Shown piece by piece: positions 2,536-28,520 of a stretch of DNA of 64,000 bases. The translations under genes and the position numbers were made by a program. The notes under the pieces are model-generated. The model made no database searches and was not told the origin of the DNA. It was given only the letters and a program-made list of their open reading frames with translations. The DNA comes from an uncultured Clostridia bacterium (GTDB taxonomy: Bacteria; Bacillota; Clostridia; TANB77; CAG-508): positions 1 through 64,000 of the forward strand of contig CANRNR010000002.1 in assembly GCA_947632035.1 (NCBI GenBank), read 5' to 3'. Position 1 is the stretch's first letter. Each line of letters begins with the position of its first letter.

Positions 2536-4338
2536 TTATTTAAAATATGGAAATAAATTAATTTTTTTTGGGGGTATTATTTTAGAACCATCAGATAAAA
2601 AAGCTAAACAAGTAAAATTTTGAAGCTCTTGGGAGAAAAAATTAGTATCAAAAATAAAATCAGAATGTACATATGTACTAATCGTTTCAGAAATACTTGA
2701 ATTTTTAGAATTTAAAGAGTTTGTAAAATAACTAAAAACTGTTTCTTTTGCATTTTCAGAAATTCCCTTTGAGATTTTTTCTTTATCTTCTTTACCGATT
2801 TGTTTCTGAGCAGTTTCTATTGTAAAAATGTCATCATTTCTAAACCATAATTTATTTATTAGATTTTGAATAATAACTTTAACTGCAGATTCATCATGGA
2901 GTGTATTTAATAATGAAGTATAACTTTGTGTTGCAACAATATTTATGCATTTAGCTTCTCTACTTTGAGAAAAAAAGTTAGCATCTGTTGCTGTGCAATA
3001 TTCTGAATATTCATCTGAAATAAAGCAAACTGGTCTAATGTCTATAGTTTCATATTTAGATAGTCTTATCATAACTTCAGTTTGAAAATCTAATTTTAGA
3101 TATGTAGCAATGATTCTAGATAAATTGGTGTATTCATTTATATTCATATTTAATACTACAATTTTTCCTTTAGTTAATACTTCCTCGAAGCCATAAAAAT
3201 TAAGTTCATCTTTTTTGGGATTAAATGTTCTTAATACATCATAGTCGGAAACAAAGCAATTAGTTATACGCGTTATTTCAGATTTTAATATTGATAGAGT
3301 TCTATTATCTAAACTTAAAAATTCTTTTTCAAAAAAGGTTATAGCTGAAAGTAAATCATAAATTTGATTATCATTAAATTCATTTTTTAAAAACTTTTCA
3401 CGTAATAAATTTATTTTTTCTAAATAATAATTTGGAATGTTTACAAGCTTATGTAATTCTTCAAATGTAACATAATTTTCATTGTATAGTCTACAAAGTT
3501 TTATACATTCTTCTAAAACTTGAGCTGCTTTATCTATCCAGTATGATTCAGAATTATTTTTTGAAAATAATAACAAAATTGTTTTTAAACGTTCAGCTAA
3601 AATTGATGCTTTTAAATGTGGTTTATCTAATGGGTTATATTTAAATTTACCTTTTAATTCAATGACTATAACATCATTTTTACGATTAAATTCATTTGAA
3701 AATTCTAATACTTTCTTATAATAATTGCCTTTTACATCTAAAATTAACATTCCTAATTTTTCATTTGGATTATTGTGTTCATATTTTATTAATTGCTTTG
3801 TAAATGGATACATAGCACTACTTGTTTTTCCCGTTCCGATAGTTCCTGTAATTAAAATATTTTGGTATAGACTTTTTTCCGGTAAGTAAATTTTTTCTTC
3901 GGATTTTTCTATTTTGCCAACTAAAAGCTGTAAAGGAGCAGAGATAGTATTTGAATCTATAAAAGAATATTTAGAATTAGTTTGATTAGAGATTAATGAA
4001 ATTTTTGATGAATTTTTAAATTTATTTTTTAAAATATTATAAAATTTAAAAAGATCATTTGGCTTTTTAATTGCTTTATTTATATTATTAGATATGTTTT
4101 TATTTTTCTTATTTTTTAGTATATTATTTAACAATTTAGAAATTAAATTATAAAACATATTAAAAATAAAAACAGAAGAGTATAAAGTTGTTATACAAAA
4201 CCACATTTTACAATATTTCCAAATAATAGGTTGCTCTATGCAAATATTAAAAGGATGAAGACCATAATTTACAATAACTTCATTTGAAATATAAAGTGGA
4301 GAAAAAATTTTATAGAATGTAAAACAATAAATAAGCAC
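2536..4338 (-). CDS. type IV secretion coupling protein (VirD4/TraG/TraD family ATPase)
   Basis: 600 aa. N-terminal TM helices, then Walker A GTIGTGKTSS and a downstream MLILDVKGNY motif resembling the TraG/VirD4 vviDPKGE box. Walker B-like DEYSEY acidic stretch. Confidence 0.6.
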   Translation of the reverse strand: MLIYCFTFYKIFSPLYISNEVIVNYGLHPFNICIEQPIIWKYCKMWFCITTLYSSVFIFNMFYNLISKLLNNILKNKKNKNISNNINKAIKKPNDLFKFYNILKNKFKNSSKISLISNQTNSKYSFIDSNTISAPLQLLVGKIEKSEEKIYLPEKSLYQNILITGTIGTGKTSSAMYPFTKQLIKYEHNNPNEKLGMLILDVKGNYYKKVLEFSNEFNRKNDVIVIELKGKFKYNPLDKPHLKASILAERLKTILLLFSKNNSESYWIDKAAQVLEECIKLCRLYNENYVTFEELHKLVNIPNYYLEKINLLREKFLKNEFNDNQIYDLLSAITFFEKEFLSLDNRTLSILKSEITRITNCFVSDYDVLRTFNPKKDELNFYGFEEVLTKGKIVVLNMNINEYTNLSRIIATYLKLDFQTEVMIRLSKYETIDIRPVCFISDEYSEYCTATDANFFSQSREAKCINIVATQSYTSLLNTLHDESAVKVIIQNLINKLWFRNDDIFTIETAQKQIGKEDKEKISKGISENAKETVFSYFTNSLNSKNSSISETISTYVHSDFIFDTNFFSQELQNFTCLAFLSDGSKIIPPKKINLFPYFK

Positions 4339-4654
4339 AAAAAATAAAGTGGATAATAAGCGTTTAATTAATAGAACACCTCCTATTTAGAGAAATAATT
4401 TTTTAATTTTAATTTGGAACCTTGTAGATTATGAAAAATTTTAATATCAAAGAAAGTATAAATTGAATAAAAAAATATAAATGAATTTATAATAAGGAGA
4501 ATAAAGAAATAATCCAATAATTCGATATAAAAATCACCTCTTTCCATTTTTTACCATAATACATCAAAATTTTAAATTTGTCTATACTTTTTTGAAAATT
4601 TATGGTAAAATCATATAATAATTATAGAAATTGAAATTTAGAAAGGAGATCATC

Positions 4655-4840
4655 ATGGATATAAAGAAAGATATGACAATAGGAGAATTATTAGAAAAAG
4701 CTCCAGAAAAGGCTGATATTTTATTAGAAGCTGGTATGCATTGTTTAGGTTGTCCTGCTTCACAAGCAGAAACAATTGAAGAAGCATGTGAAGTTCATGG
4801 AATTGATGTAGATGAAATAATAGAAAAATTAAATGCATAA
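4655..4840 (+). CDS. DUF1858 domain protein (hybrid-cluster-protein-associated redox disulfide protein)
   Basis: MDIKKDMTIGELLEKAPEKADILLEAGMHCLGCPASQAETIEEACEVHGID matches the DUF1858 CxxC family. RBS AGGAGA 6 nt upstream of ATG 4655; the 4631 ATG is less likely. Confidence 0.75.
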   Translation: MDIKKDMTIGELLEKAPEKADILLEAGMHCLGCPASQAETIEEACEVHGIDVDEIIEKLNA

Positions 4841-4923
4841 ATTAGAAAAGGCTATCAAAGGTTAGGAAATTTATTTGAAATGTAGAAAAAATTCATAAAA
4901 AATTCACAAAATGATAAAAAAAG

Positions 4924-4958
4924 GTTGACAAAAATAAAAAAATAGTTTAAAATAAAGC
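4924..4958 (+). promoter_or_regulatory. sigma-A type promoter for tRNA operon (TTGACA-17-TAAAAT)
   Basis: TTGACA at 4924, 17-nt spacer, TAAAAT, ~40 nt upstream of first tRNA. Confidence 0.45.
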
Positions 4959-4998
4959 TTGTGTTAGCTCAGAAATGGGTGTGGCAAGCTTTAGACTT

Positions 4999-5074
4999 GG
5001 GTCATTAGCTCAGGTGGTAGAGCACTTGACTTTTAATCAAGTTGTCCGCGGTTCGAGTCCGCGATGGCTCACCA
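4999..5074 (+). tRNA. tRNA-Lys (anticodon UUU)
   Basis: GGGTCATTAGCTCAGGTGGTAGAGCACTTGACTTTTAATCAAG...GGCTCACCA: cloverleaf with 7-bp acceptor stem, anticodon loop CTTTTAA, encoded CCA. Confidence 0.9.
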
Positions 5075-5127
5075 AACTAGGATTTAAACTTTAAAATTTA
5101 AATCCTAGAATAAACTTTTTAATTTAT

Positions 5128-5202
5128 GGCCCCGTGGTCAAGCGGTTAAGACATCGCCCTTTCACGGCGGAGACATGGGTTCGATTCCCGTCGGGGTCAC
5201 CA
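5128..5202 (+). tRNA. tRNA-Glu (anticodon UUC)
   Basis: GGCCCCGTGGTCAAGCGGTTAAGACATCGCCCTTTCACGGCGG...GGGGTCACCA, anticodon loop CTTTCAC, encoded CCA. Confidence 0.9.
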
Positions 5203-5206
5203 AAAT

Positions 5207-5518
5207 GCCACTTTAGCTCAGCTGGTAGAGCAACTGACTTGTGGGATAGATAAAACTATGGTTTTATTTTGAACTATCTTGCACCTTTACATAGAAATAT
5301 GTAAAGTGGATACCGCTAATTCGGGGAAAGCTTTAAAATGCTAATCCCGAGCTAGAAAACAATTCGTTTTCGAGTGTAGAGACTTTATACGGTATACCTA
5401 AGGTAAAAAATACTAAGGTAAAGAGAAAGTCCAGACTACAAACACATAAAATGTGGTAATGAAAGTTATAGTAGTATGAATCAGTAGGTCATCTGTTCGA
5501 ATCAGATAAGTGGCTCCA
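5207..5518 (+). tRNA. tRNA-Thr (anticodon UGU) interrupted by a group I intron; exons 5207-5242 and 5479-5518
   Basis: Exon 1 GCCACTTTAGCTCAGCTGGTAGAGCAACTGACTTGT and exon 2 AATCAGTAGGTCATCTGTTCGAATCAGATAAGTGGCTCCA join to a canonical 76-nt tRNA. This is near-identical to Bacillus tRNA-Thr(UGU) through ...GCAACTGACTTGTAATCAGTAGGT.... Acceptor GCCACTT/AAGTGGC, T-arm ATCTG-TTCGAAT-CAGAT. Confidence 0.85.
5243..5478 (+). ncRNA. group I self-splicing intron (IC3-like, tRNA-anticodon-loop type), ~236 nt
   Basis: Inserted after anticodon position 36 (U), intron ends in G (omegaG). Core elements resemble the Azoarcus/Agrobacterium tRNA introns: AAUUCGGGGAAAGC (P4 region), GUGUAGAGACU (P7 5' strand), ACCUAAGG, and GACUA downstream. 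Confidence 0.75.
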
Positions 5519-5754
5519 ATAAACGCTTCTTAACTTGTTTTATAACTTGTTATGAGGTGTTTTTTTTGCTTAAAAATAAGTGCCTTTTACAAAGTATATC
5601 TTATTTATATAAAATTAATAAAAATATTCTGAAAATTTTGACATTTGTAGTTATTTTTATGATATAATACAAATAAATTAGCACAAATGTTTCGTATTAT
5701 TAATTGAAAGGAGGACTAATTCAATTATCTAAATAATTGAATTATAAATAAATT

Positions 5755-6144
5755 TTGTATTGTTTAAATTGTAAAAAATTGATTAGTAATAAGAAAAAAT
5801 TTTGTAATAATATATGCCAAAAAGAATTTGAATATAAAAATTATATAAATAGATGGAAAAATAATCAAACAAATGGGATTAGAGGAGATTATCAAATTTC
5901 TTTACATATAAAGAGATATTTAATGGAAAAATATAATTATAAATGTAGTAGATGCGGATGGGGAGAAAAAAATATATATACAAATAAAATTCCATTAGAA
6001 GTAGAACATATAGATGGAGATTATACTAATAATAATGAAGAAAACTTAATATTATTATGTCCAAATTGCCATTCACTTACAAGTACATATAAAGGAGCAA
6101 ATAGAAATTATGGAAGAAAACAAAGAAAAAAATATTCAAAGTAA
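5755..6144 (+). CDS. HNH endonuclease (free-standing, zinc-ribbon + HNH)
   Basis: C-terminal EVEHIDGDYTNNNEENLILLCPNCHS is a canonical HNH motif; N-terminal CxxC...CxxxC zinc ribbon. The 5755 start is TTG with no nearby RBS. An internal ATG (MEKYNYKCSRCGW) with AAGAGA RBS would give a 73-aa HNH-only product. The 3' end overlaps the next gene by 35 nt. Confidence 0.6.
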   Translation: MYCLNCKKLISNKKKFCNNICQKEFEYKNYINRWKNNQTNGIRGDYQISLHIKRYLMEKYNYKCSRCGWGEKNIYTNKIPLEVEHIDGDYTNNNEENLILLCPNCHSLTSTYKGANRNYGRKQRKKYSK

Positions 6145-6865
6145 AGTAGTAATTGTTACAGGTGGTTCTAGAGGTATAGGAGCTCAAATTGTTAAAACAT
6201 TAGCAAAAGAAAATTATAAAATTATTCTAAATTATAATAAGTCAGAACAAAAGGCAAAACAAATACAAGAAGAGCTAAAAAATGATGGAAAAGAAATTGA
6301 AATTTTTAAAGCTGATGTTTCAAAAAGGGAAGATGCTAAAAGCCTAATAGAATTTACTTTGCAAAAGTACGGAACTATTGATGTGTTAATAAATAATGCG
6401 GGAATTTCACAATCAAAATTGTTTACAGATATAACAGATGAAGATTGGAACAATATGATAAATATAAATTTAAATTCAGCTTTTTATTGCACACAAGAGG
6501 TTTTAAAAACTATGATAAATAATAAAGATGGTTTAATTATAAACATATCTTCTATTTGGGGGTTAACTGGTTCTTCTTGTGAAGTAGCGTATTCTGTAGC
6601 AAAATCTGCTTTAAATGGAATGACTAAAGCATTAGCAAAAGAACTAGGATTGTCAAATATAAGAGTTAATGCTATTGCACCAGGAATTATAGATACGGAT
6701 ATGAATTCATATTTAACAAATGAAGAAATAGAAAAAGTGAAAGAAGAAATACCATTAAATAAGATAGGAAAAACAGATGACATTGCAAGGTGTGTAAAAT
6801 GGTTAATTGAAGATGAATATACAACTGGACAGATTATTTCTATTAATGGCGGTTGGTATATTTAA
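6110..6865 (+). CDS. SDR family oxidoreductase, 3-oxoacyl-ACP reductase (FabG)-like
   Basis: VVIVTGGSRGIG Rossmann motif, NNAG, catalytic YxxxK (YSVAKSAL), PG motif (APGIIDTDM). Confidence 0.8.
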   Translation: MEENKEKNIQSKVVIVTGGSRGIGAQIVKTLAKENYKIILNYNKSEQKAKQIQEELKNDGKEIEIFKADVSKREDAKSLIEFTLQKYGTIDVLINNAGISQSKLFTDITDEDWNNMININLNSAFYCTQEVLKTMINNKDGLIINISSIWGLTGSSCEVAYSVAKSALNGMTKALAKELGLSNIRVNAIAPGIIDTDMNSYLTNEEIEKVKEEIPLNKIGKTDDIARCVKWLIEDEYTTGQIISINGGWYI

Positions 6866-7529: not shown

Positions 7530-8102
7530 TTAATTTGTTCCGACAATTTTTCCAACAATATAGAAATCATCTTTAGGATTTAAGCAAATATCCTCAACAT
7601 TTTTATCTTCTGCCCTTAGAACCACACCATCTTTACGAATAATGAATCTACGTATTAACAATTTGTTTTTATAAGAAAATAGTCCTAAGTCTCTATTATC
7701 TAAAGGTGCATTAAATTCAACATAAGCATAAGATCCTTCTTTTAATTTTGGTTCCATTGTATTATCAGTAATTTTTACTGCAATAGATGCTCCTGGGATT
7801 GTAGGAGGGCAATCAATTAAAGAACCTAATGAATCAAAAGTAGGAATTTTATCATAAGGAATATGTTCTTCTATTTTATAAGAGTGATGTTCTTCTGTAA
7901 GTTCTTTATCATATGTATGCATTAAAGGACGGTAAGGAATGCCCATAGTTTTACACATATTTCTTAAAACTTTATGACTAGGATTTCTTTCACCTTTTTC
8001 AATATGAGTTAAATGACCTGTATTTATATTAGTTCCTCTAGCAATTTCTGCCTTTGTTAGCTTTTTTTGCTTACGAATATAAGCAATCATTTCACCTATC
8101 AT
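7530..8102 (-). CDS. XRE-family HTH + S24 (LexA/cI-like) peptidase-domain repressor
   Basis: N-terminal HTH (IRKQKKLTKAEIARGTNINTGHLTHIEKGER), C-terminal S24 fold. The S24 catalytic motif reads TDNTMEP where GDSM is expected (Ser replaced by Thr). Start reassigned to ATG 8102 (MIGEMIAY), 7 nt after an AGAGGAG RBS. Confidence 0.7.
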   Translation of the reverse strand: MIGEMIAYIRKQKKLTKAEIARGTNINTGHLTHIEKGERNPSHKVLRNMCKTMGIPYRPLMHTYDKELTEEHHSYKIEEHIPYDKIPTFDSLGSLIDCPPTIPGASIAVKITDNTMEPKLKEGSYAYVEFNAPLDNRDLGLFSYKNKLLIRRFIIRKDGVVLRAEDKNVEDICLNPKDDFYIVGKIVGTN

Positions 8103-8289
8103 AATGATACTCCTCTTCATTTAAACTTATTTTCAAAATTATTATATATAAAAATAAAAAACTTGTCTAGATAAAATAACAAAAAAAGATAAATTATAAT
8201 AAAATACAACTTTTTTTTATTGTAAAACTTACATATTTGTGGTAATATTATTTCATACAAAAGTATATATTTTATTTAAGAGGTAAAGT

Positions 8290-10171: not shown

Positions 10172-11033
10172 ATGAGTTTAGAACAAGAAACTAGATTTTT
10201 AATGAAAAAATATCAAATTACTGCCAACAAAAATTTAGGTCAAAATTTTTTAATAGATGATGAGGTTATGAAAACCATTGTAACATCTGCTGAAATTACA
10301 AAAAATGATATTGTAATTGAAATAGGACCACGGATTAGGCTCATTAACAGCTAAACTATTAGAAAATGCTAAAAAAGTAATTGCTATTGAAATAGATAAA
10401 AAAATGGAAAATATATTACAAGATAGATTTTCTATTTATAATAATTTTACTTTAATAAATGAAGATGTATTAAAAATAGATTTACATAAACTGATAAAAG
10501 AGCAAAATCCAGAAAATAATAATGTAAAAATAGTAGCAAATTTACCATACTATATTACAACACCAATTATTATGAAATTATTAGAAGAAAAATTACCTAT
10601 TCAAAGCATTACTGTAATGATACAAAAAGAAGTTGCAGATAGGTTATCTGCTATTCCAGGTGAAAAAAATACAGGTGCAATTACTTATTGTGTTTACTAT
10701 TATTGTGAGGCAGAGGAAGTTTTAAAAGTTCCTAATAGTTCATTTATACCAGAACCACAAGTGGATTCAGAAGTAATAAATTTAAAAATTAGAAAAAATC
10801 CACCTGTAAAATTAGATAATGAAGAATTATTTTTTAAGCTTATTAAAGCAAGTTTTATGCAAAGAAGAAAAACTTTGTTAAATTCACTTTCTAATTCTGG
10901 CATTATACCAAAGGAAAAAGTAAGGAAATTATTAGAAAAATTAAATTTAAATGAAAATGTAAGAGGGGAAGAACTAACAATAGAGCAATTTGCACAGATG
11001 GCAAATATGCTAAATTTACCACTTGACAAGTGA
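10172..11033 (+). pseudogene. rsmA: 16S rRNA (adenine1518/1519-N6)-dimethyltransferase RsmA/KsgA, interrupted by +1 frameshift
   Basis: N-terminal part (NLGQNFLIDDEV...EIGP) and C-terminal part (NLPYYITTPIIMKLLEE...) lie in different frames. Removing one C at ~10331 (GGACCA-C-GGATTAGGC) restores EIGPGLGSLTAKLLENAKKVIAIEIDKKM. Confidence 0.85.
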
Positions 11034-28139: not shown

Positions 28140-28520
28140 TTCCTCACTTTTCTTATTAAATTTTATAATAAAAGTTTCACCAATATTTTTCCATTTTCTT
28201 TATATGTGTTTTTATTTTTTTATACATAAAAAAACTCCTATCCTCAAAAATTTAAGGACAAGAGTTAAAATACCCCTGCGGTACCACCTTAATTAGCTTA
28301 AAGCTCACTTATTATTCATATACTATCATATATGCCCAATTTTTACGATTTGGGTTATCGTCAACGCCTACTCTTATTTTACATAATTTCTGGTTGCCCT
28401 CATCAGTCCATTCAGTAAAACTCCTTGCGTAGTATTTCCACCATCAACTACTCTCTATAGCCTTTTATTAAACTTACTACTCTGAATCAACGGTTTAATT
28501 ATTTGATTTATACTATAATT
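28140..28520 (-). promoter_or_regulatory. T-box riboswitch leader
   Basis: Minus-strand reading contains the canonical T-box sequence GCTAATTAAGGTGGTACCGCAGGGG (plus coords 28274-28298) ~140 nt upstream of the aminotransferase start. The upstream region is less AT-rich with no ORF and an AGAGAG/GTAGTA stem-I-like segment. A possible UAC (Tyr) specifier is in ...AAAUACUACGCAAGG.... Confidence 0.7.

Follow-up and report, generated by a model that had tools for sequence, protein, structure and literature searches.

An intron-interrupted tRNA-Thr(UGU) gene and an adjacent putative homing endonuclease gene in uncultured gut Clostridia

Positions 5207-5518 of the DNA studied here, a 64,000-nt stretch of contig CANRNR010000002.1 (assembly GCA_947632035.1; hereafter, the window) from an uncultured Clostridia bacterium, very probably constitute a functional tRNA-Thr(UGU) gene that is interrupted between tRNA nucleotides 36 and 37 (36/37) by an IC3-type group I intron without an open reading frame (ORF), predicted to be self-splicing. 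A small HNH gene lies downstream at 5755-6144, and we are somewhat inclined to regard its product as a putative free-standing homing endonuclease of a tRNA-Thr-associated clade that takes part in collaborative homing with the intron. Evenly balanced, in our judgment, is the broader proposal that intron and HNH gene form a chromosomal collaborative-homing module and that all stages in the birth and death of a mobile intron survive among more than 100 species of gut Firmicutes. The window intron belongs to a large family that is unannotated and falls within a catalogued class; what the analysis adds is the HNH partner and the series of states. The HNH gene, absent from a preliminary description of this DNA that had been made from the sequence letters, is the more interesting part of the locus.

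The preliminary description had proposed a tRNA-Thr(UGU) gene split by an intron of about 236 nt, with the interruption after position 36, and both points stand. In its intron-aware mode, ARAGORN called tRNA-Thr(tgt) i(37,236) exactly at 5207-5518, and from the fused exons it called a 76-nt tRNA-Thr(tgt) of canonical form: the acceptor stem has 7 bp, the D, anticodon, and T arms are all there, and CCA is encoded. The parts of the gene are as follows.

5207..5242, forward strand: 5' exon of tRNA-Thr(UGU), GCCACTTTAGCTCAGCTGGTAGAGCAACTGACTTGT, ending in U5242, the -1 nucleotide
5243..5478, forward strand: group I intron, IC3-like, 236 nt, without an ORF (RF00028 match, covariation)
5479..5518, forward strand: 3' exon of tRNA-Thr(UGU), AATCAGTAGGTCATCTGTTCGAATCAGATAAGTGGCTCCA

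The 5' exon holds the acceptor 5' strand, the D arm, the anticodon-stem 5' strand, loop nucleotides C32 and U33, and the anticodon U34 G35 U36; it is invariant across the 97 homologues of the intron-locus alignment (among the matches listed). The 3' exon supplies A37 and A38, the anticodon-stem 3' strand, the variable loop, the T arm, the acceptor 3' strand, the discriminator U, and the encoded CCA. No alternative splice register yields both a U-1/omega G pair and a 7-nt anticodon loop; therefore, the Asn/Thr boundary ambiguity reported in Patescibacteria (PMC13011429) does not apply here. The same sequence is present in three independent assemblies of the source organism.

Neither ARAGORN in default mode nor Rfam at its gathering threshold called the interrupted gene, and both detected there only the upstream tRNA-Lys(UUU) (4999-5074) and tRNA-Glu(UUC) (5128-5202). 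One further element precedes the three genes, which we infer to be co-transcribed as a tRNA-Lys/tRNA-Glu/tRNA-Thr array.

4925..4953, forward strand: promoter-like site TTGACA-17-TAAAAT, 11/12 matches by consensus scan only, upstream of the Lys/Glu/Thr array

ACA makes up 51% of the threonine codons in the long ORFs of the window, the GC content of the window is 26%, and ARAGORN found no second tRNA-Thr gene within its 64 kb; on this view of the genome, the dependence of the cell on the splicing of this tRNA-Thr(UGU), which the preliminary description had stated, is therefore likely.

To find relatives, species-representative genomes were searched with the end of the tRNA-Thr 5' exon followed by a nucleotide other than A37 (GGTAGAGCAACTGACTTGTB), which gave at least 119 loci. 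When 120 loci (the 119 listed plus the viral contig L025; L numbers are our locus labels) were put through intron-aware ARAGORN, at least 107 were called as tRNA-Thr(tgt) i(37,N), so that the same boundaries recur in at least 107 independent genome loci. Among the matches listed, 97 introns are 218-245 nt long and 10 are 437-659 nt long; five more loci carry the same intron cut by the locus edge, which brings the family to at least 112 species-representative genomes. Hosts among the matches listed are nearly all uncultured gut metagenome-assembled genomes (MAGs) labeled Clostridia, Clostridiales, or Clostridium sp. (CAG:245, CAG:492, CAG:508, CAG:780, UMGS, and others), with a minority labeled Bacilli, Erysipelotrichaceae, Mollicutes, or Lachnospiraceae. 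The preliminary description had considered such an intron unusual in a low-GC Firmicute, a view that this distribution, almost entirely gut Clostridia and Bacilli MAGs, contradicts. The closest of the listed matches is a rabbit-gut "uncultured Clostridia" MAG, with 94% identity over 312 nt and flanks at about 70-80%.

The U at the end of the 5' exon and the G at the end of the insert, which had been pointed out at the outset, are U5242 and G5478. Every copy has U-1 and omega G (G in 108/108 among the matches listed) and begins its 3' exon alike, and the U-1.G wobble pair in P1 is invariant in 95/95 distinct sequences, next to a pair that is G-C in 69 and A-U in 25.

Covariation was assessed in an alignment of 97 introns, which comprise 95 distinct sequences. 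The drawn P1-P9 helices and tRNA arms are 96.4% paired in the 95 distinct sequences, compared with 33-40% for slid partners, and 42 base pairs show compensatory change. None of 500 shuffles reached the observed percentage paired, the pairs or cells changed on both sides, or the covariation score; by contrast, 134 of 500 shuffles match the count of further pair types, which therefore does not set the alignment apart. P3, P5, P6a, and P8 covary, and P4 and P7 are invariant, as expected of a catalytic core. RNAalifold, unaided, recovered the tRNA arms, P1a, P2, P3, P4, P5, P6a, P8, P9, and P9b. It picked a different register for P1; G-C/A-U covariation at the fourth intron pair favors the register drawn here. 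Exons are intact in every homologue aligned. To judge from these sequence comparisons, the insert is a genuine IC3-type group I intron selected for both the ribozyme fold and tRNA function.

An Rfam search of 451 nt (5150-5600) matched RF00028 (Intron_gpI) at 5255-5456 over the full model (1-253) with 42.3 bits and E=1.4e-9, the sole meaningful Rfam match there. The helices, drawn manually with the curated alignment of bacterial tRNA introns from Williams 2020 (bioRxiv 10.1101/2020.01.27.920355) as a guide, fold from P1 to P9 with the proposed splice sites, an outcome that the preliminary description had set as a test of its proposal.

5240-5249 with 5274-5283, forward strand: P1 (from the pair list), UGU/GGGAUAG with CUAUCUUGCA, the slash marking the 5' splice site; wobble pair U5242.G5281 at that site
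5250-5256 with 5261-5267, forward strand: P1a, a hairpin inside P1; compensatory change in 6/7 pairs
5268-5273, forward strand: invariant bulge UUUGAA within P1
5285-5293 with 5298-5306, forward strand: P2, 9 bp, with a GAAA tetraloop at 5294-5297; 8/9 pairs compensatory; found de novo by RNAalifold
5310-5315 with 5390-5395, forward strand: P3, AUACCG with CGGUAU; 3/6 pairs compensatory, e.g., C-G 64 / U-A 31
5318-5320, forward strand: J3/4, AAU
5321-5326 with 5345-5350, forward strand: P4, invariant
5330-5331 with 5340-5341, forward strand: P5, shortened
5351-5353 with 5373-5375, forward strand: P6; 6/9 pairs compensatory in P6 and P6a together
5355-5360 with 5366-5371, forward strand: P6a
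5379-5385 with 5427-5432, forward strand: P7 pseudoknot, the guanosine-binding helix, G5379, bulged A5380, and GACUU 5381-5385 with AAGUCC; 6/6 pairs invariant in 95 sequences
5396-5402 with 5413-5419, forward strand: P8, ACCUAAG with CUAAGGU; outer pairs covary, inner non-Watson-Crick positions conserved
5435-5439 with 5471-5475, forward strand: P9, three-way junction; compensatory change in 1 pair
5443-5446 with 5452-5455, forward strand: P9a; 2 pairs compensatory
5457-5460 with 5465-5468, forward strand: P9b, with a GAAA loop at 5461-5464; 3 pairs compensatory
5478, forward strand: omega G, the last intron nucleotide; the intron ends in AUG, as do other "5Ug" introns

P3 encloses the P4-P6 domain plus the 5' strand of P7, whose layout agrees with the P7 annotation (A/a columns) in the SS_cons line of Williams' alignment, and the architecture of the P9 region is the same as in IC3 seeds. 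The intron has a GNRA-looped P2, no P2.1, a short P5 without P5abc, and a P9 junction with a GAAA hairpin, and it contains the IC3 core blocks AAUUCGGGGAA / AAUCCCGAGC / GUGUAGAGACU / AGUCCAG. Its nearest curated seed is Bbo3.Arg.5Ug, a tRNA-Arg 36/37 intron of IC3 type (160/196 aligned nt identical), so the kinship with the Azoarcus and Agrobacterium IC3 introns first suggested for it is borne out, with an IC3 assignment drawn from architecture and this pairwise seed match. The four core blocks quoted in support of that kinship are all present (AATTCGGGGAAAGC at 5318-5331, GTGTAGAGACT at 5375-5385, ACCTAAGG at 5396-5403, and GACTA at 5434-5438); two of them had been mislabeled as P7, since ACCUAAGG is the 5' strand of P8, in the tetraloop-receptor region, and GACUA is the start of P9.

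With the Agrobacterium-type tRNA-Arg ("Arg.5Ug") and Azoarcus tRNA-Ile(CAU) introns, the window intron shares the 36/37 site, a P1 with three exon nucleotides, a GAAA-looped P2, a short P4-P6, a P7 with a bulged A, a P8 containing the motif CCUAAG, and a P9 region with a GAAA loop. It differs from them in its tRNA-Thr host, the extra P1a, the invariant UUUGAA bulge, and a high AT content; in addition, its clade has lost the P5 receptor, and the intron has an HNH partner gene. According to Williams 2020, the known settings of group I introns that interrupt tRNA genes of bacteria have expanded from 4 to 21, and none of the Rfam group I seeds is bacterial. The same alignment includes the seed Rba53.Thr.5Ug, a tRNA-Thr(GGU) intron at 36/37, which places the tRNA-Thr 36/37 U/G class among those already catalogued. 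That seed and the window intron have in common the tRNA-Thr host, insertion after loop nucleotide 5 (36/37), U-1, omega G, the AUG end, and an IC3-like core; however, the seed is GC-rich and has the anticodon GGU rather than UGU, and it is among the seeds least similar to the window (137/196 aligned nt identical). We found no paper describing this tRNA-Thr(UGU) intron family, in a check that did not extend to the phylum-level counts of Williams 2020.

Splicing is expected to follow the standard two-step guanosine pathway, a prediction made from sequence and fold. Upon transcription of the Lys-Glu-Thr array, the exons would be held paired in the anticodon stem and the intron would fold into P1-P9. 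An exogenous guanosine bound in P7 would then attack the phosphate after U5242, within the P1 U.G wobble, and G5478 would next take the place of that guanosine in the same P7 site. Attack by the 3'-OH of U5242 after G5478 would join the exons with the loop CUUGUAA, and the product would serve as the principal tRNA for decoding threonine codons in this organism of 26% GC.

The HNH gene lies 236 nt downstream of the interrupted tRNA-Thr.

5755..6144, forward strand: free-standing HNH endonuclease gene, 129 aa, TTG start; PF01844 at 25.0 bits (cut-off 21.4)

Its protein has an N-terminal CxxC...CxxxC and an intact core, EVEHIDG...NLILLCPNCH; PHROG HNH families match the ORF down to E=1.6e-20, and a search of solved structures with the protein gave marginal matches only (DotN, McrA). 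The 3' end of the gene overlaps the start of a short-chain dehydrogenase ORF (6110-6865). An AAGGAGG at 5708-5714 sits 40 nt before the HNH start, with a 9-bp hairpin (5720-5728 with 5733-5741) in between; the arrangement in L138 is similar, and the HNH genes of most relatives have an ATG and a normal Shine-Dalgarno sequence. The TTG start and distant Shine-Dalgarno sequence may mean low or regulated expression. A candidate sigma-70 promoter for the gene at 5639-5670 was dropped, as its spacer is 19 nt and the promoter scan gave no call. The median dN/dS (nonsynonymous to synonymous substitution rate ratio) of the free-standing HNH ORFs is 0.22, and on this sequence measure the linked HNH gene is under purifying selection.

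At least 69 loci have an HNH homologue either within the same intron or downstream of it. Among the matches listed, a full-length HNH gene follows the tRNA at a distance of 61-237 nt, on the same strand, in 45 of the 88 assessable short-intron loci, and 18 more have HNH fragments. Among the long introns listed, eight of the 10 complete loci carry an HNH ORF, 62-75% identical, inside the intron in the terminal loop of P5, with L070 frameshifted and L117 cut short, and the edge-truncated L095 provides a ninth copy. The C-terminus of these in-intron proteins (...YSLYGNPEL...) is translated from the P5'/P4'/P6 core, and the embedded gene was found in a Bacilli-labeled lineage of MAGs. None of nine assessable long-intron loci listed has a downstream HNH copy as well. 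The other two complete long introns have, in one case, a PD-(D/E)XK ORF and, in the other, no ORF of either kind. The former, L111:5658-6382, encodes 147 aa (PF11645, E=5e-14) in its P6 loop and has no HNH gene, which indicates that a second endonuclease family colonized the same intron. PF11645 is also the family of I-Ssp6803I, a PD-(D/E)XK enzyme encoded by the cyanobacterial tRNA-fMet intron (PMC13011429). That system likewise combines an anticodon-loop group I intron with its own endonuclease; it differs in tRNA, phylum, and site (33/34), and the window copy has no internal ORF. The locus L097:6284-6796 (Clostridium sp. CAG:780) has a 437-nt "intron" in which two variants are combined, as a partial tandem duplication or a chimera, with a stray piece of 3' exon, probably a strain-mixture assembly artifact or a recombination product.

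A comparison of intron presence and absence in relatives, which the preliminary description had called for, found both states. A metagenome scan for the intronless allele (the same 5' exon plus 12 nt of the 3' exon) gave at least 120 loci, and the exact 3' exon of the window is present in 23 of those listed. Several of these loci show synteny to the window, with identity of about 75-80%, and have a precise empty site. In L251, for example, window positions 4500-5242 and 5479-5520 align to adjacent coordinates, so that the intron is precisely absent; the body of the HNH gene is missing as well, and dehydrogenase, carbohydrate-binding module, and LexA-like genes come next. Among the matches listed, a full-length HNH gene adjoins 1 of 106 assessable intronless loci, and a 23- to 42-aa C-terminal HNH remnant is present in 21 of them. 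Intron state also differs between loci with flanks 97-99% identical (L055 versus L187 and L195, CAG:245-type; L105 versus L194; L050 versus L212, CAG:508), which points to recent gain or loss. We considered whether the intronless metagenome contigs could be spliced transcripts and rejected this for the syntenic multi-kilobase loci, which also lack the HNH body; L187 falls outside this rejection.

Phage genomes hold relatives of the HNH protein in 106 records (tblastn, 39-54% identity). In six of the eight best phage records examined with ARAGORN, namely those of Enterococcus phage iF6, Xanthomonas phage XbC2, Streptomyces phage Jada, Synechococcus phage DSL-LC03, Salicola phage SCTP-2, and Escherichia phage WPEC5, an intronless tRNA-Thr gene is located no more than about 100 nt from the homologue. 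The catalytic core of the window protein (aa 62-121) also shares about 51% identity with an HNH protein of the T5/BF23 tRNA region ("hegA", T5p073), with the likeness confined to the core. This adjacency and core likeness suggest that the HNH clade is a tRNA-Thr-associated endonuclease family. As a side observation, in several of the phage records L267-L274 (MT909815, OR003938, MF360958, PV654397, and others) ARAGORN found unannotated tRNA genes, including tRNA-Thr(UGU) beside HNH genes, and in phage iF6 the HNH homologue itself is unannotated.

For the collaborative-homing reading, the locus combines an ORF-less intron with an adjacent free-standing endonuclease gene, presence/absence polymorphism at a syntenic site, and homologues inside the same intron. 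Full-length HNH genes are associated with the intron (45/88 intron-plus versus 1/106 intron-minus loci; Fisher p=3e-18) in a test that has no phylogenetic correction, ignores shared ancestry, and sets species-representative genomes against non-dereplicated metagenome contigs. The HNH enzyme would cut intronless tRNA-Thr(UGU) alleles, and repair of the double-strand break from an intron-plus, HNH-plus donor would copy intron and HNH gene together. By splitting the HNH target site, the intron would protect its own allele; after fixation, the endonuclease would decay, and intron and HNH gene may be lost. In a Bacilli-labeled lineage, the same HNH gene would have moved into the P5 loop to give a classical mobile intron. 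The proposed series would thus run from (i) an endonuclease beside an intronless tRNA gene (phages, L187), through (ii) an endonuclease beside an ORF-less intron (the window) and (iii) an endonuclease placed within the P5 loop and extending at its C-terminus into the ribozyme core (Bacilli-labeled MAGs), to decayed endonuclease remnants and precise intron loss.

The known examples of collaborative homing are two phage systems (psbA/F-CphI; Bonocora & Shub 2009; review, PMC3984707). These share with the present locus an ORF-less intron, an endonuclease gene directly downstream, joint presence/absence polymorphism, and related loci with the endonuclease inside the intron, the predicted end-product of the pathway. 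However, the phage introns interrupt a protein gene, whereas here the host is a chromosomal bacterial tRNA gene and the HNH gene is tRNA-Thr-associated; moreover, the defining trait of the phage systems is that the cleavage site coincides with the intron insertion site, which for the window is a prediction.

The leading alternative, less probable and still with substantial weight, is that the intron splices and the HNH gene is a mere neighbor, a tRNA-Thr-associated free-standing endonuclease practicing "intronless homing" in the manner of T4 SegB and the T5 HNH enzymes, with the link to the intron explained by physical linkage (<300 nt) and ancestry. Such endonucleases are documented in phage tRNA clusters (T4 SegB, GIY-YIG; T5 F-TflI/II/IV, HNH; PMC2330249), where a small endonuclease gene is likewise wedged among tRNA genes, although no intron is involved and the enzymes act between co-infecting phages. 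The alternative owes its weight to several observations that, besides the shared ancestry disregarded by the Fisher test, tell against collaborative homing. The phage homologues coexist with intronless tRNA-Thr genes; L187, an intronless 2.4-kb contig labeled cov 1.86, holds a full-length HNH gene; and 24 of the short-intron loci listed have no HNH trace at all. The phage cases and L187 imply that the intron is not strictly needed for immunity. L050 and L212, with flanks 98% identical and the same HNH remnant, differ in intron state, which also suits a neighbor without a role in homing. A further point against collaborative homing is that the window gene itself starts with TTG and has no Shine-Dalgarno sequence at the normal distance. 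On the other side, the same HNH clade occurs inside this very intron (eight complete loci plus L095), a position that would be of use to the element only with an enzyme directed at the intronless site; copies inside the intron and copies downstream exclude each other (0 of 9 among the loci listed); and within the Clostridia lineage only one of the 106 intronless alleles listed has a full-length HNH gene beside it.

As to the intron itself, it is unlikely that the RNA has a group I fold and fails to splice autonomously in vivo, whether because it needs a host protein cofactor or because it splices poorly. The Azoarcus intron has two GAAA tetraloop/11-nt receptor contacts, L2-P8 and L9-P5. The P8 sequence CCUAAG...UAAGG of the window intron is presumably a variant of this receptor, with UAAGG as its 3' strand where most relatives have the canonical CCUAAG...UAUGG. 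In addition, the P5 of most relatives is longer, with a receptor-like CUAAG...UAUG, and the window's clade has a truncated form (GCUU-UAAA-AUGC) without the extended receptor; therefore, tertiary docking may be weaker in the window intron than in most relatives. The intron is also very AT-rich, and the covariance-model check named in the preliminary description gave a match whose 42.3 bits fall short of the curated gathering score of 50 and which vanishes from an E-value scan of the whole 64-kb window, lost to filters. These features count against autonomous splicing. Against them stand the intact core (P3, P4, P6, and P7) and both intact GAAA loops, and the occurrence of the short-P5 form with intact exons in more than 12 species (e.g., L031, L033, L045, L050, L055, L062, L094, L102, and L138), which argues that it is functional. 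Small IC3 tRNA introns, such as those of Azoarcus and Anabaena, generally self-splice in vitro.

Still less credible, and very improbable in our view, is a dead tRNA pseudogene whose work is done by an intronless tRNA-Thr(UGU) elsewhere in the genome. The window covers 64 kb of that genome, which leaves room for a second copy outside it, and intronless alleles with identical exons exist in related organisms. However, the exons and catalytic core are invariant and the helices change in a compensatory manner over more than 100 species, which is the signature of selection on tRNA and ribozyme, and the gene has stayed in a Lys-Glu-Thr array that is conserved and follows a promoter-like site. An insertion of another kind (a group II intron, an insertion sequence or miniature inverted-repeat transposable element, an archaeal-type bulge-helix-bulge intron, or an assembly artifact) would fit the lack of any Rfam family at its gathering score here, but it is negligibly probable given that RF00028 is the only meaningful match, that all group I hallmarks are present, that the same sequence occurs in three independent assemblies and more than 100 other genomes, and that the insert has no transposase, terminal repeats, or group II domains.

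The practical consequence is that, because of the intron, tRNA finders in default mode and Rfam at its cut-off both miss the main threonine tRNA. In 18 relatives' loci, no intron was reported at the Rfam gathering score, so that, with the window, the whole family appears invisible to routine annotation and many gut Clostridia and Bacilli MAGs will seem to lack tRNA-Thr(UGU). An intron-aware search or a model built for bacterial tRNA introns cures the omission. A 2026 survey of 4,934 complete genomes reported 333 tRNA group I introns in 18 phyla, 81% of them IC, of which only 12 have endonuclease genes, and inferred from this a limited mobility (PMC13011429); its text has no mention of Bacillota introns in Thr(UGU). 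The usual description of bacterial tRNA introns as mostly endonuclease-free and hardly mobile (PMC13011429) may be set beside the present locus, where the endonuclease lies outside the intron, and surveys restricted to long introns would overlook such a free-standing partner. The family offers intermediates between free-standing and intron-embedded endonucleases, together with presence/absence pairs from the same species. If the module proposal is true, this would be the first such mobile-intron series outside phages and a direct test-bed for the Bonocora-Shub pathway; if the cleavage specificity of the HNH enzyme is confirmed, collaborative homing would extend from phages to bacterial chromosomal tRNA genes.

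Viral sequences were also searched for the intron. The junction-plus-P4 pattern (GACTTGTG-N45-75-AATTCGGGGAAA) had no match in the viral contigs scanned, and blastn against phage genomes gave core-level similarity only (72% over 163 nt, huge-phage records). A generic P7-P8 pattern matched 21 viral contigs, in which the ARAGORN introns are mostly in tRNA-Leu, with Met, Asn, Pro, and Ser in addition and none in Thr. An intron of a different, IA-like type occupies the same Thr(UGU) 36/37 site in L084 (from about 3802 onward, a gammaproteobacterial MAG) and in the viral contig L025 (1187-1497), with the core GGGTGAATTCAGGGAAACC and, in L025, also GCAGAGACTA...ATAGTCC, which suggests that the tRNA-Thr(UGU) site has been colonized more than once.

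Other tRNA-Thr-like sequences came up in the same searches. In two Cytophagales/Ohtaekwangia MAGs (L040, about 630; L076, about 6195), a tRNA-Thr-like gene has a short GC hairpin, CCCGATAGC(A/T)ATCGGG, right after the anticodon UGU, where it takes the place of the normal 3' side of the loop. Four Billgrantia/Halomonas loci (L048, L063, L071, and L141) contain 19 nt identical to the D/anticodon-arm region of tRNA-Thr (GGTAGAGCAACTGACTTGT) followed by CATCAGTTGG in a non-tRNA context, which may be a tRNA gene remnant.

Elsewhere in the window, the tRNA array is flanked by a TrwB/TraG-like type IV coupling protein gene (2536-4338, reverse strand), which may mark a nearby conjugative element, and by a gene for a LexA-like repressor with helix-turn-helix and peptidase S24 domains (7530-8120, reverse strand). 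The latter is syntenic in intronless relatives and is therefore not part of the mobile unit. An rRNA adenine dimethylase gene (PF00398) is split on the forward strand into a 60-aa part (about 10172-10354) and a 209-aa part (10404-11033), as in the gene calls of the source contig, and could be a frameshift or a pseudogene. Finally, a T-box leader match at 28251-28499 on the reverse strand scores 91.3 bits (E=1.3e-18) against an Rfam gathering score of 93.

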